This document shows positions 38,300-43,554 of a DNA stretch of 64,000 bases, piece after piece (within the stretch, counting starts at the first letter, position 1; the number at the start of each line of letters is the position of its first letter). Source of the stretch: an uncultured bacterium (lineage in GTDB: Bacteria > Planctomycetota > UBA1135 > GCA-002686595); NCBI GenBank assembly GCA_943787795.1, contig CALSNU010000002.1, positions 672,001 to 736,000 on the forward strand, written 5' to 3'. Position numbers and translations under genes: made by a program. The notes beneath the pieces are model-generated. The model did no database searches, had not been told where the DNA came from, and saw nothing but the letters and a program-made list of their open reading frames with translations.

Positions 38300-38628
38300 G
38301 GAGGCACTGGGTCGGGGCTTCCCACGCCCAGGGGAGGCGTTGACCTCGAGCCGCTCGCGGGGCGTTGCCTGAGGCGGTGTTGCGGGCGGTGGCCTCGTGT
38401 GAGAGACCATGAGTTGCCGCTGATTCTGTAGTTGGGGACCCCACCCCCTCCATCAATGGGCGCTCGACGGCGTCGGCCATCGACACCTCCGTCTTCTATG
38501 GGGTATTGTGGAAGTACCGCGGCCTCATTCGTCCTTCCTTGACGGATGGGTGAGGGGTGGGCGGTGTCGAGGCGTGGCCTCGGTGCCCCGGTCTCTGGTG
38601 CCGCCAGCCCTGCCAGGTCAGGCTTGAT

Positions 38629-39426
38629 ATGGATCAGCCTTCGAATTCGGGATCTTCCCATCCGCGCGCGGCGGCCCCCTTGGATGGGGTGGGAGAGGCT
38701 GTAGGAGAGCGGGTTTGTCGGAGTCAGGCTCCGGCTCGGGGGGGCGAGCGGTGGGCCTCCAGGAGGGCGCGGCGGAAGGTCGGATATCGGATCGGGGCCA
38801 CGGTGGGGGCGGTGTTCCTGGCGGTGTTCTCTTGGGGGGACGATGGGCAGGTGCTGGCCAAGGGGCCGGCGAATCCTGGGCATGGGGCGTTGGAGTGCGC
38901 GGACTGTCATGACTCGGCGCCGGGGACGGTGCGGCAGCAGGTCCAGGCGGCGGTGGCCTTCGGGCTGGGGCTGCGGGAGACGGCGCCGGCTATCGGGCGG
39001 CTGCCGGTGACGAATCGGATCTGCCTCGACTGCCACGAGCGGGAGGAGGACCACCACCCCACCCACGTGTTCACCCAGCCCAAGTACGCGGACGAGCGGG
39101 AGGAGATCGCGGCGCACCTGTGCATCACCTGCCACCGCGAGCACAGCGGGCGGCACGTGGAGAATACGGGGCAGTTCTGCGCGACGTGCCACTCGGGGAT
39201 GGAGGTGCGGGAGGATCGGATGACGCCGACCCACGCGGCCCTGGCCGCGGAGGAGCGGTGGGACACCTGCCTGCGCTGTCACGACTTCCATGGGAACCAC
39301 CACCACGAGTGGCCCGAGTCGTTGGAGGAGGCGTTCGGGGGCCGGGAGGTCCTTCGCCACCTGGACAGCGGGACGCCTATGTACGGAGAGAAACGGGAAC
39401 CGGCGCGGACGTCGCGCGACCGATAG
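38629..39426 (+). CDS. Membrane-anchored pentaheme c-type cytochrome
   Basis: Five CxxCH motifs (CADCH, CLDCH, CITCH, CATCH, CLRCH) after an N-terminal TM; start uncertain. Confidence 0.88.
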   Translation: MDQPSNSGSSHPRAAAPLDGVGEAVGERVCRSQAPARGGERWASRRARRKVGYRIGATVGAVFLAVFSWGDDGQVLAKGPANPGHGALECADCHDSAPGTVRQQVQAAVAFGLGLRETAPAIGRLPVTNRICLDCHEREEDHHPTHVFTQPKYADEREEIAAHLCITCHREHSGRHVENTGQFCATCHSGMEVREDRMTPTHAALAAEERWDTCLRCHDFHGNHHHEWPESLEEAFGGREVLRHLDSGTPMYGEKREPARTSRDR

Positions 39427-39442
39427 GGTCAGGGTGCTTCTG

Positions 39443-40261
39443 ATGTTTGTCCGAGCCTCCGTCCTCCTCGGCCTCGCGGCCCTCTGCATCTACCTCTTCG
39501 TGACGGCGCCGCCGCCGCTGGAGGAGGAGGGCGCGGTGGAGGCCTCGGTGCCCATCGAGGAGGCCTTCGCGGTGCTGGCGCGGGAAAACGACGTCGCGCG
39601 GACGCTGTGGACCCGCGAGATCGTGGGCGCGGGCAAGAAGGTGGGCCTGAGCTTCGCCGAGGACTGGGAGGACGACGGGGTGGACGCGGGGCCGCTGCCG
39701 GCGCTCTTCCTCAAGGAGACCTCCCGGCAGCTCAACCGCAAGCCGGCGCCCCTGGCGCTCTACCTCGGCTCCGACGCGCCGATCGTCGAGGGGAACCGCT
39801 TCGATGGACAGCAGGCCGAGGAGTTCGCCCAGCTGCGCGCCACGGGCGACCCGCGGTTCTTCCTGGACCTCGAGTTCGGACTGCAGACGGCGATGTTCCC
39901 CGACGTCGCCGGCGCGGACGCCTGCGTGACCTGTCACAACGCCCACGTGGACTCGCCCCGGGACGACTGGGCGCGGGGCGACGTGATGGGGGCGACGACC
40001 TGGACCTACCCCGAGGCCACCGTCTCCCTCGACCGGCTCGTGGAGCTGATGGACGTCTACCGCGAGTGCACGCGCCTCGCCTACGAGCGCTACCTCGCCA
40101 AGGCCGCGACCTTCGAGGAGCCGCCCCCCGTGGGGGACCGCTGGCCCCGCGAAGGTGAGCGCGTCCTCCCGAGCGCGGACGTCTTCATGGAGGAGATCGA
40201 GCGCAGCGTCTCCCGGGACACCGTCGCGTCGCTCATCGGCCTCGTCAGGTCGCGCCGCTGA
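39443..40261 (+). CDS. Monoheme c protein, DUF3365/Tll0287-like
   Basis: N-terminal TM; PLPALF, SDAPI..N, ACVTCHNAH..W..GDVMGA. Confidence 0.8.
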   Translation: MFVRASVLLGLAALCIYLFVTAPPPLEEEGAVEASVPIEEAFAVLARENDVARTLWTREIVGAGKKVGLSFAEDWEDDGVDAGPLPALFLKETSRQLNRKPAPLALYLGSDAPIVEGNRFDGQQAEEFAQLRATGDPRFFLDLEFGLQTAMFPDVAGADACVTCHNAHVDSPRDDWARGDVMGATTWTYPEATVSLDRLVELMDVYRECTRLAYERYLAKAATFEEPPPVGDRWPREGERVLPSADVFMEEIERSVSRDTVASLIGLVRSRR

Positions 40262-40263
40262 CC

Positions 40264-40746
40264 GTGCGCTACCCCGCCCACACGAGGCGCCCGATCTTCT
40301 GGGGCACCCTCGCGCTGGTCCTCGCGCTGCTGCCCTTCCTGGGCGTGCCCACGCCCGAGGGCCTGCGGTCGATCTACGCGGACCCCACCTACCGCGTGGT
40401 GACCGGCTTCGCCCTCACCGTCCTCGTCGCGTTCCAGTGGGCCTACGTGGTCCTGCGGCGGCGCCCGGGGACCGACGTGAAGGCGCTGCTGGTCCAGCAC
40501 CTCTGGATCGGCGCGGCGGCGCCGATCCTGCTGATGATCCACGCCCTGTCCTCGGGCTACGGCTACCAGGCCGCGCTCGTCTGGGTCTTCCTCGCGAACT
40601 GCGTCCTCGGCCTGCTCAGCCCACGGATCCCCGGGCGTCAGCTCCGAGGGCTCGAGCGGCTCTGGCTCCCGCTCCACATCGCGGGCTCCATCAGCGTCGT
40701 CGCGCTGATCGCCATCCACGTGGTGGTCGTGACGCGCTACCACTGA
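40264..40746 (+). CDS. Four-TM membrane protein with heme-b-ligand-like histidines
   Basis: QHLWIG..IHAL and LHIAG..IHVV His pairs on two helices. Confidence 0.7.
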   Translation: MRYPAHTRRPIFWGTLALVLALLPFLGVPTPEGLRSIYADPTYRVVTGFALTVLVAFQWAYVVLRRRPGTDVKALLVQHLWIGAAAPILLMIHALSSGYGYQAALVWVFLANCVLGLLSPRIPGRQLRGLERLWLPLHIAGSISVVALIAIHVVVVTRYH

Positions 40747-40759
40747 GCGGCGCCGCCGC

Positions 40760-40978
40760 TCAGCCGCCGAGGAACAGGTCGAGGACGCTGTCCGCGGTGC
40801 TGACGGTCTTCTTGAAGAACTCCGTGTAGCCGCAGTCGCTGCAGGTGATGTGCGTGAAGCGCTGGTTCTGGATGTCGAAGAAGCGGGAGAGGCCGTCGCC
40901 TGTGGTGCGGATGACGCCGTGATCGAACTGGCGGCACTGGCACTTGGGACACTCGTACTGATGGCGCTCTTGGGGCAT
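40760..40978 (-). CDS. Zn-ribbon protein (DUF2082-like)
   Basis: CPKC..SRFFDIQN..CSDCGYTEFF. Confidence 0.85.
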   Translation of the reverse strand: MPQERHQYECPKCQCRQFDHGVIRTTGDGLSRFFDIQNQRFTHITCSDCGYTEFFKKTVSTADSVLDLFLGG

Positions 40979-41244
40979 GGGGGCTCCGTCTTGGGGTGGA
41001 TTCGGGTCGGGCCGGGGGCGGGCACGCCTCGCGGGCCAGGGGTCATTACGGGGCAGCCGTGAGGTTATTCACGGCCGGGCAAGGGGTCCCTGGGGGCCGC
41101 CGGGGCCCGCTCGGCCCATTGGGACCGATTGACGCGCATGGTCCGGGCTTCGGTGCGTAGCCTCGATCGAAGCGGGCCGATAGGTGCCGCAGGGGAGCCG
41201 CCCTCCCCGAACCACTCGCCCCCGCGGCGAAGGAGACCCCAGAC

Positions 41245-42432
41245 ATGAACATCCAACGCTCCTCAACGGGGCTCATCGCGGCGCTGGCCGTGGCTGGACT
41301 GACGTCCGCCGCGCTCACGCCCACCGGACCGAACGAGGGCTGGGCTTCATCGAGCATGAAGCACCGCGCCTCCGAGAAGTTCGACTACGTCCTCGGCCAG
41401 GAGAAGTGGCAGTCCCTGGGGGACGAGATCACCCTCTTCGGCCAGGAGTTCCCCGTCGAGATGATCGGCCCCGTGCACTTCGAGATCGACTCGAACGGTG
41501 ACGGCCGGGTCGACCGTGACATCAAGGGTTCCGACGGCTTCGTCGACCTCAAGGGCGAGGACGCCGAGGGCCAGGTCTTCCACTACGGCGTCCGCTTCCG
41601 CAACGACGGCGAGCGCAAGTGGAGCTGGACCGCCTCGGGCGCCATGACCGGCAAGGTCGAGGGGCTCACCATGGCGGTCATCGACGCCAATGCCAACGGG
41701 CGCTACGACGACCTGGGCGTCGACGGCCTCGCCATCGGCAAGGACCGCGGCGCGGGCTACGTCTCCCGCATCGTCAGCATCGACGGCGAGCTCTTCGAAT
41801 TCGAGGTCAACGCCGACGGCACCGAGGTCAAGACCCGGCCCTACACGGGCGAGACGGGCCTCCTCAAGCTCAAGACGATCAAGGGCATCAAGGCCAGCGT
41901 GGTGACGGCCATCGCCCGCCAGGGCAAGGACGTGTCCTTCCAGATCGCCGGCGCCAAGAAGGGCATGGTGGTCCCCGTCGGGGACTACGTCCTCGCGGAC
42001 GCCTTCCTGAAGGGCGGCTCCGAGACGGCGCGGATCCGCATGGGCCGCATGGAGCGGCTGGAGGTGGCCACGGACGGTGAGGTCGAGCTCCAGCTCGGCG
42101 GCCCGCTCGTGGGCGAGGTCCCCACGCCTCGTCTGCAGGACGGCAAGGCGGTGGTCAGCCCCAACGTCCAGGTCTTCGGCTCGCTCGGCGAGGAGTACTA
42201 CGACTTCCAGCCCAAGGGCAAGGTCCCGACCTTCGAGCTCTACGACGCCAACACCGGCAAGCGCCTGCAGAAGGGCAAGTTCCCCTCTGGCTGATGAGGC
42301 TCGGCCCTCCCGGTCACCGTGGGTGTACCGAACCAAACCGACCTTGACGTGATGGTCCTCAGCGAGCGGAAGATGTTCGGCAAGCTGAAGGCGAAACCCC
42401 GCCAACGGAAGGGGCCGCGCTCGCCGCGCTGA
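41245..42432 (+). CDS. Secreted beta-rich protein; candidate selenoprotein with tandem UGA-UGA at 42292-42297 (conventional call ends at 42294)
   Basis: AAGGAG RBS; signal peptide; DSNGDG and DANANG Ca-loop-like motifs; GKFPSG-TGA-TGA-GSALPVTVGVP..FGKLKAKP..TGA at 42430-42432; SECIS-like hairpin; hairpin terminator only after 42432. The CDS is well supported; the extension is inferred. Confidence 0.65.
42311..42330 (+). promoter_or_regulatory. Putative bacterial SECIS element
   Basis: CGGT-CACC-[GTG]-GGTG-(T bulge)-ACCG; G-starting loop 21 nt after the second UGA and 24 nt after the first. Confidence 0.6.
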
Positions 42433-42471
42433 CGGCTCCACCGATCCCCGCCGGGTCGGGGACCCAGGAAT

Positions 42472-42515
42472 CGAGAGAGGCCCCGCCCAGCGACCACTTG
42501 GCGGGGCCTCTCTCG
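42472..42515 (+). terminator. Perfect 16-bp stem hairpin (putative terminator)
   Basis: cgagagaggccccgcc - 12-nt loop - ggcggggcctctctcg. Confidence 0.75.
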
Positions 42516-42582
42516 TCGTTCCAATGGACCGGCGGACAAGAGGTCCAAGGGCGCCATTCTGTGCGGCAGCGGGTCCTTGGGT

Positions 42583-43325
42583 GAATAGGAGGATGGGAGT
42601 AACGGGCGGGGCGCGGCCCAGGGAAGGGCCGCCGACGCCGGGTTGACCTGGGGCTGGAGAGGAAATGCCAAGCCCGCAGAGCTCGGAGTCCCATGATTAC
42701 GCCCGGACGCCGCACAGTCCAACCACGAGGAGTAGCGGGCGCCCGGTGGGGGACATTGGCTTCGAGGTGGGCCTTGGGCCGTGGAGGGACTCGACTCAGG
42801 CGAATCCAGTTGTGGCTCGGGGCATGCGGGCGCCAACGCCGGGCGCCGACTCCCGGGGCTCGCCGCTCAGGCTGAGGTCGAGGAGGATCTCCCGCGTCGC
42901 GAGCGGGTCCGAGATCGTGGTGACGCGATGGCGGCCCCCGCGACCCTTGGGGTATCGCAGCACGTCCGCCGCGAAGGTCCGACGGAGGAGCTCGGCCCAG
43001 CTATGCGCCCTGCCCGAGCGCAGGGATCGCCCTCGCCGACGTCCCGGTGCCGCGGGGAACCGCGCGGCACGGCGGCATCGCGCGGTGGCGACGAGAGGGC
43101 GAGAACGCCGAGGCACGCCCACCGGTGCTGCCGCGGGTGGGGGACCAAGGCGACGAGCCGCTAGAGGAAGGCGAGAGGGGGGTCGAAGGCGAAGGCTCGC
43201 GCGCCGTCGCGGCGGACGGCGAGCTGGCCTTGCGCGAGGGCGGGGCAAGCGACATTGCGCCCGGGGCGTTTGAGCCGAAGGCCTTCCTCGGCCTCGAGGT
43301 GGATGGCCGCGTGGAGGGGGTCCCG
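42583..43325 (-). mobile_element. Decayed IS91/ISCR-family rolling-circle transposase remnant
   Basis: LHAAI..FDPPLAFL*RLVALVPHPR..LGVLA, then frameshifted SWAELLRRTFAADVL..ISDP..REIL; in-frame TAG at 43161-43163; oriIS-like CTCCTATTC near 42583. Confidence 0.75.
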
Positions 43326-43554
43326 GCCGAGCTTCCATTGAACTCCTCAGGTGGCACGACGTTCGTCTCGGTGGCGCGCAAGCTCACAGCCGGATCGCTG
43401 GCCTCGAAATCCTGCACTCACGCTCGCAATCCGATCTGCTAGTCAGGGCCAGTCATCGGATCGTCGAGTATCGCCTGGGTCCGAATATCAAGCGATGATA
43501 TAGTCTTCAAGACCCTATTTCTGGAGATGCAATCGCACCACAAGAGAGTGAAAA

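Follow-up and report, generated by a model that had tools for sequence, protein, structure and literature searches.

A predicted bacterial Sec-Sec selenoprotein of Planctomycetota with two consecutive UGA codons and a single SECIS hairpin

The window, a 64,000-nucleotide stretch of a Planctomycetota genome, contains an open reading frame (41245-42294, +, 349 aa) whose product ends in KGKFPSG at TGA TGA (42292-42297). The same frame continues for 44 sense codons to a TGA at 42430-42432. An earlier note, made from the letters, had taken this arrangement for a gene encoding an exported selenoprotein with two adjacent selenocysteine (Sec, U) residues, and the frame, its end and its extension are indeed present in the sequence. 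The note had also stated that neither part of the protein contains Cys, and the 395-aa read-through translation, with TGA as Sec, has no Cys elsewhere. The features of the gene are as follows.

41230..41235 (+), Shine-Dalgarno-like AAGGAG read from the sequence, 9 nt upstream of the ATG
41245..42432 (+), full gene of 395 codons and a stop, with two UGA codons read through, in agreement with the homologues
41245..41316 (+), probable cleavable signal peptide, approximately residues 1-24 (boundary estimated; low pLDDT)
41338..41856 (+), N-terminal all-beta domain, residues 32-204, with two Asp-rich DxNxDG/DxNxNG loops (pLDDT 96.9)
41851..42102 (+), middle beta-sandwich domain, residues 203-286 (Z 6.8, rmsd 3.5, 83 aligned to 4ecn_A)
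42103..42402 (+), C-terminal FnIII/Ig-like beta-sandwich, residues 287-386, bearing the predicted Sec pair in a loop
42292..42297 (+), TGA TGA, predicted Sec350-Sec351, in the loop between strands 340-345 and 357-360
42298..42429 (+), 44-codon tail with strands 357-360, 367-375 and 379-385, then a basic flexible end
42311..42330 (+), bacterial SECIS hairpin with apical loop CGUGG (42318-42322), 23 nt past the first and 20 nt past the second UGA
42467..42522 (+), strong GC-rich, terminator-like hairpin past the true stop

The gene is solitary; a small zinc-ribbon gene runs divergently from it, and the strong hairpin lies behind it. The strength of this hairpin, to which the earlier note had pointed as terminator-like, was borne out (z -6.0), but it has no U-run and was not called by a terminator search. 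The zinc-ribbon gene (40760-40978, -; 72 aa; DUF2082 through a homologue in L026) is kept in four same-genus loci. A three-gene cluster at 38557-40746 (+) encodes a multi-CXXCH cytochrome c-like protein, a Tll0287-like protein, and a small membrane protein; in the flanks examined, no relative had these upstream cytochrome-like genes as neighbors. The frame at 42796-43338 (-) has no Pfam match. It contains a stretch that we take to resemble the C-terminus of IS91-like transposases and is possibly a remnant.

The TGA TGA was found in the contigs of all four sequencing runs checked (two DNA and two RNA libraries), with no differing letter at 42292-42297, which speaks against a sequencing error. 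No flag marked either of the two DNA runs as the possible origin of the window; the runs holding most of the 64-kb stretch are marine. The RNA-library contigs span parts of the gene including the UGAs, by which transcription is not proven. TGA is the stop of 1612 of the 1952 long genes in the genome; as the main stop, it indicates no change in the genetic code. Fifteen of the 1952 end in TGATGA, and we compared the coding potential of the sequences behind them. The tail of the gene at 41245 was by far the most coding-like (score 0.25). Among the other 14, two tails scored 0.09 and 0.11, where the next gene lies in frame, and 12 were negative. No second UU gene was found in the genome, which is 85% complete.

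A search with the read-through protein matched 221 of 339 genomes of the class, and at least one TGA was present in 137 of the 150 matches listed (of 319). Our analysis used 91 loci. Besides the window locus and its paralogue, these were the 29 top remaining matches and 60 others that were picked. Since nine of the ten stop-free matches reaching the site were among those picked, Cys-only forms are over-represented in the 91. The aligned pair was CU in 50 loci, UU in 21, CC in 8, CxxU in 8, UC in 2, SC in 1, and SU in 1, which includes each of the states predicted by the earlier note (CC, CU, and UC). All 91 have Cys or Sec at position 351, and neither TAA nor TAG occurred at the pair in any of them. 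Among these and further loci, Ser, Thr, or Gly can replace the partner residue (SU/TU variants).

Conservation downstream of the UGAs had likewise been anticipated and was found. Complete (closed) tails of 36-59 codons were present in 89 of the 91 homologues, with TGA as the stop in 41, TAG in 35, and TAA in 13 (48 TAG/TAA). The tail residues V361, F378, and G379 were kept in 82, 85, and 79 of the 91, respectively, and a Cys-Cys homologue aligned straight across the pair and the tail. Four close relatives showed 12 synonymous versus 4 non-synonymous differences in tail residues 363-386 (approximately 15 and 57 sites, respectively), the same substitution pattern as in the gene body. These comparisons indicate that the tail is conserved and under purifying selection. 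TGATGA itself persists in relatives down to ca. 33-38% identity.

In a sample of the phylum, 77 of 301 genomes matched at E<=1e-25. The family profile found 1897 representatives at E<=0.001 and 223 at 1e-30. Of the best 150, 110 end at the pair, 33 pass beyond it, and 7 are fragments; automated annotation thus does cut the protein short, as had been expected. The paralogue in the same genome (locus L022; G000:C1:989305-990450, +) reads CU and has the same SECIS at 23 nt. A conserved gene of ca. 800 aa, with no Pfam match and no useful PDB match, follows in 18 loci of the paralogue clade.

The hairpin behind the UGAs of the window gene (23-mer, -10.2 kcal/mol; loop CGUGG or GUG) is bulged, and strict perfect-stem scans miss it or score it weakly. 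By itself, it is not stronger than shuffles (z 0.2-0.4). With its energy this unremarkable, the case for the SECIS-like hairpin of the earlier note is made by conservation and covariation. Using the pattern of a CG(U/G) loop on a stem of three or more pairs, we found one and the same distance from the UGA to the loop start, exactly 23 nt, in all of the single-UGA genes of a first set (61 of 61), taken among the 91 loci, whereas the pattern is present in none of the nine CC/SC genes. In the two UC genes, the SECIS lies one codon nearer and is still 23 nt from the UGA. Across 24 hand-picked rows, 93% of the cells of the six-pair stem were paired, with two-sided changes in five of the six pairs; slid controls gave 14-62%. 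In the eleven codons after the pair, six of nine relatives had no synonymous change (gene-body pS 0.11-0.48). The hairpin agrees with the bacterial SECIS consensus of G in the first two loop positions and a spacing of 16-37 nt, as given in the available text of PMC13188914. Rfam returned nothing near gathering scores. A genome-wide scan for UGA plus a hairpin at 23 nt was rejected as a detector, as it gave noise (59 sites versus 46-123 at other distances).

Each of the 21 UU genes has one hairpin, located 23 and 20 nt from the two UGAs in 13 genes, including that of the window, and 26 and 23 nt in 8. With a single hairpin, one SECIS must serve both codons. In a second set of 61 further loci, some of which repeat the first set, the loop lies 20 nt from a single UGA in L143, L144, L145, L170, and L178 (four of these also match the pattern at 26 nt) and 26 nt from it in L171. 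The pattern had no match in three single-UGA loci of this set (L177, L194, and L195) or in the UU locus L159. The distances of 20 and 26 nt that UU requires thus also occur in genes with a single UGA. Elsewhere in the genome, 19 candidate Sec sites were compared: the best loop was at 17-24 nt in 15 and at 28-38 nt in three; one had none.

For the 91 rows, a quick tree built after removal of the motif placed 19 UU and 2 UC genes in one branch (98), with UC nested inside the UU clade, and a second pair of UU genes among CU genes. In a second tree of 63 rows (45 of the 91 and 18 new phylum loci), UU appeared in additional branches, among them the paralogue clade, and the state changes involving UU numbered 6-7 (seven in all, six of them forced by starred branches). 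A single UU clade of 14 UU rows and one UC row, the latter put into the test after the first tree had been seen, was rejected (p-AU 4e-9). Because the trees are unrooted and quick, they show repeated exchange between CU and UU and not its direction. Six of the eight CC copies are from genomes that also yielded a UU or CU copy.

The search for selA, selB, selC, and selD proposed in the earlier note found the complete set: selA, selB, selD, and tRNA-Sec were all above cut-off in the genome (84.9% complete), and selD has one in-frame TGA of its own. ARAGORN found only one tRNA with a UCA anticodon, which is the tRNA-Sec. A coding-potential scan of the genome gave 122 candidate read-through sites, mostly a stop plus the next gene; several have motifs that we take to be those of FdhA, AhpD, PrdB-like, and UxxC thioredoxin-like selenoproteins. 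selA was present in 76 of 79 family-bearing genomes, among them 18 of the 20 other UU genomes (the three negative ones are 73-78% complete), and in 44 of 45 genomes without a strong family match. The gene is therefore nearly universal in the class, and its co-occurrence with the family is consistent with Sec insertion but cannot discriminate. In total, selA was found in 120 of 124 tested genomes of this Planctomycetota class; the available text of the 2026 review PMC13188914 mentions neither Planctomycetes nor diselenide.

The structure of the protein was modeled from 72 sequences, folded with Cys in place of Sec. The model (mean pLDDT 92.4, pTM 0.86) is all beta with no helix. A hydrophobic N-terminal stretch was found in 89 of the 91 homologues, a lipobox-like motif in none, and a Tat-like motif in one. 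Together with the lack of a lipobox and of membrane helices further on, the hydrophobic N-terminus suggests that the protein is soluble and exported. In the N-terminal domain, D147 and D160 are invariant; the two Asp-rich loops carry what we take to be a calcium-binding motif and may bind calcium. This domain had no Foldseek match at E<=0.001 (best VIA Z 5.0), which does not show a new fold, and the match of the middle domain to 4ecn_A is of middling score. The C-terminal domain matched FnIII/Ig domains (best Z 7.8, rmsd 2.9, 85 aligned, model range 287-385). As the earlier note had supposed for the last beta domain, the tail completes this domain in the model: it supplies three of the strands, so a protein ending at residue 349 would lack part of the sandwich. 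Foldseek with the whole model gave only TM <= 0.2, no Pfam or NCBIfam family matched the protein, and a PDB sequence search returned two weak rows at chance level. No match was found on plasmids, and no other conserved Cys was found in the mature protein among the 91 homologues.

That the protein contains at least one Sec residue is, from the evidence above, virtually certain, and it is highly probable that residues 350 and 351 are both Sec. A double stop or a sequencing error followed by a relic tail is scarcely credible. TGA being the main stop, the fifteen long genes ending in TGATGA, and the gene callers that end 110 of the best 150 representatives at the pair would all suit it; however, Cys-Cys homologues align through the tail, the tail appears to be under purifying selection and completes the modeled fold, TAA and TAG are absent from the pair in the 91 homologues, the SECIS covaries, and the run contigs agree on TGATGA. 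It is also distinctly improbable that only the UGA located 23 nt from the loop encodes Sec and that the ribosome gets past the other through near-cognate insertion of Cys or Trp, or only seldom, so that the product would be UC/CU-like or scarce and the tandem would act as a selenium-dependent throttle. The strictness of the 23 nt in the first set (61 of 61) implies that 20 or 26 nt may be suboptimal there, UC is nested in the UU clade, and efficiency per UGA is limited according to the available text of PMC4513850. Yet one substitution, to TGC, would suffice for efficient Cys incorporation, and TGATGA nonetheless persists to ca. 33-38% identity and recurs on separate branches. Moreover, single-UGA relatives use 20 and 26 nt, and the sole tRNA with a UCA anticodon is the tRNA-Sec.

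In the decoding that we propose for two Sec residues, SelB-GTP-Sec-tRNA on the hairpin 23 nt downstream would decode the first UGA. The ribosome would then advance one codon, leaving the hairpin 20 nt off, and a second SelB complex would reuse it for the second UGA. Failure at either UGA would end translation and leave the last domain without three strands, and the amount of full-length protein would depend steeply on the selenium supply. Recoding in E. coli reaches 30-40% per UGA, according to the available text of PMC4513850. Two UGAs in a row could therefore be inefficient, with roughly a tenth of the product full-length by the E. coli figures, and such an output would be sensitive to selenium. 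After export, the selenols would meet an oxidizing compartment and would be expected to close to a vicinal diselenide. The pair, placed at the tip of the Ig-like domain in a Gly-rich loop, would switch reversibly between diselenol and diselenide as a redox couple, in exchange with a partner or as a sensor of oxidants, with position 351 as the main reactive atom and 350 as the resolving partner.

With moderate confidence, we regard the function as that of an exposed extracytoplasmic redox pair, acting in redox exchange or sensing. It is rather unlikely that both UGAs encode Sec and the pair is a soft-metal or metalloid site (Hg, Cu, etc.) on an exported binding protein. Exported Ig-like domains often bind ligands, and CU is the commonest state in the family (50 of 91). 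CU is described as rare and tied to heavy-metal handling in the available text of bioRxiv 10.1101/2022.07.06.499078. In contrast, the partner residue moves (CU, UC, and CxxU) or becomes Ser, Thr, or Gly, which we infer to fit redox chemistry better, no further conserved Cys is available in the mature protein, and the 13 recurrent neighbors scanned included no metal transport or resistance family. Redox or sensing is favored over metal binding because of this movable or dispensable partner and the anti-sigma fusions described below. What remains is shared by a selenium throttle or store and other roles. In the UU clade, no conserved operon, substrate, or partner was found.

Among 20 distant loci related to the scaffold, 17 have no Cys or Sec in the loop, and the fold thus does not need the pair. 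The same applies to L023 (178-2370, +; G000:C3), a 730-aa distant paralogue with a long N-terminal extension, which ends in TGATGA with a non-coding tail beyond it. The distant locus L208 reads UC. The genes of L199 and L201 (2 of the 20) combine the scaffold and a homologous tail with a zf-HC2 finger at the N-terminus and a membrane helix. A single in-frame TGA lies in the Gly/Ser loop, which is enlarged, and each gene is located directly behind a sigma-70-family gene.

L199:640-2664 (+), zf-HC2 anti-sigma fusion
L201 (gene on the - strand, UGA at 779-781), zf-HC2 anti-sigma fusion
L219 and L220, flanks of the two fusions

In L199 and L201, the hairpins begin 18 nt behind the UGA and are no stronger than shuffles, so Sec in these proteins rests on the two loci; both are candidate selenoprotein anti-sigma factors. 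The zf-HC2 finger, the membrane helix, and the adjacent sigma gene are all absent from the window gene. The database proteins P0158, P0163, P0166, P0172, and P0178 end in similar Gly/Ser-rich stretches. We tentatively propose that Sec would be inserted twice from one coding-region SECIS to give a natural vicinal diselenide, that the site has been retuned (CC, CU, UC, UU, and CxxU) as an extracytoplasmic redox sensor, and that a one-Sec module may serve as an anti-sigma input domain; this combined reading falls somewhat short of an even chance.

The C-terminal arm of mammalian thioredoxin reductase is Gly-Cys-Sec-Gly, and many members of the family likewise have G-C-U-G in a flexible, Gly-rich stretch. 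A thioredoxin reductase of this C-terminal GCUG type was rejected: no FAD/NADPH domains were found (no Pfam match), the protein is all beta, and the motif is internal, 44 residues from the end. The N-terminal domain of DsbD and SoxY are Ig-like periplasmic thiol carriers. The window protein, a predicted exported Ig-like sandwich bearing a reactive chalcogen, may be comparable to them, and the GGC(U)GG stretch of the family may resemble the SoxY arm; unlike in DsbD and SoxY, the motif is internal and not C-terminal. Structure matches of the C-terminal domain were generic FnIII/Ig only (Z up to 7.8 with the whole-protein model), DsbD-N and SoxY were not among the 50 matches listed, and neither had a sequence match in the PDB sequence search.

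The window family resembles the bacterial SelB/SECIS selenoproteins in its in-frame UGA, Cys homologues, consensus hairpin, and Sec machinery. Table 1 of PMC13188914, in the available text, holds 119 prokaryotic selenoprotein families/subfamilies, none with the motif UU; its two-Sec entries are UxxU, UxxxxU, or single-site motifs. Unlike these catalogued SelB/SECIS families, the UU genes have one hairpin for two consecutive codons. In a comparison by name and motif, nothing in this catalogue fits the window family. The main texts of BSepDB and deep-Sep (PMC13326102 and PMC12013277), as available, contain no "consecutive" or "adjacent" Sec; the database and supplements could hold UU members. 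Consecutive Sec-Sec has been predicted from sequence, as here, in the algal PDI_e with the motif GUGUU, which is called the first such case (available text of PMC7539508). PDI_e is eukaryotic, PDI/thioredoxin-like, and stated there to be without a bacterial homologue, whereas the window protein is all beta. Since eukaryotic SECIS elements reside in the 3' UTR, PDI_e is free of any spacing constraint. A PDI_e or thioredoxin fold was ruled out for the window protein by the helix-free model and the lack of a Pfam match. Bacterial proteins with a CU motif include extracellular SaoB/SaoC, MerT, and HgcA (bioRxiv 10.1101/2022.07.06.499078, available text). SaoB, SaoC, SaoL, HgcA, and KCU-star share with the window family the alternation of vicinal CU and CC and the truncation at UGA in databases, and some are extracytoplasmic (same text). 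Unlike them, the window protein has no NCBIfam match and no such operon. The string "Sec-Sec" is absent from the available text of that preprint.

In the literature available to our search, Sec-Sec occurred only in the algal PDI_e, and neither a bacterial Sec-Sec nor a description of the window family was found. As far as this literature goes, a predicted bacterial Sec-Sec with a clear spacing signature is undescribed. The gene very probably encodes a real, uncatalogued, presumably exported selenoprotein of 395 aa with three all-beta domains and Sec350-Sec351; its decoding and its redox use would be as proposed above.

In bacteria, the SECIS closely follows the UGA that it serves, and insertion is slow and incomplete each time; the UU genes imply that one hairpin is usable twice in succession. 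The distances of 20, 23, and 26 nt form a natural spacing series for probing SelB reloading, which bears on the production of multi-Sec proteins. The family also varies sulfur and selenium naturally on a shared scaffold, with a vicinal diselenide possibly among the forms, and is both large (223 representatives at E<=1e-30) and mis-annotated (110 of the best 150 cut at the UGA). The anti-sigma fusions hint at a role of Sec in signal sensing.

Several other sites of the same genome (G000) deserve mention. One frame on C4 has two spaced TGAs, at 265626 and 265386 (-), with a strong hairpin after each (loops at 18 and 21 nt), and is a candidate for a two-Sec protein. Eight further candidate Sec sites have coding-like sequence on either side and hairpins at 17-24 nt: C2:620327 (-), C2:428135 (-), C6:581711 (+), C1:1123128 (-), C5:48764 (-), C7:99960 (+), and C2:479457 and 479166 (-). 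Six others (C1:189924, C1:753692, C2:496831, C4:789560, C6:69376, and C6:70103) we take by their motif to be thioredoxin-like UxxC sites; in two of the six, the CG-loop hairpin is unusually distant, at 38 nt.
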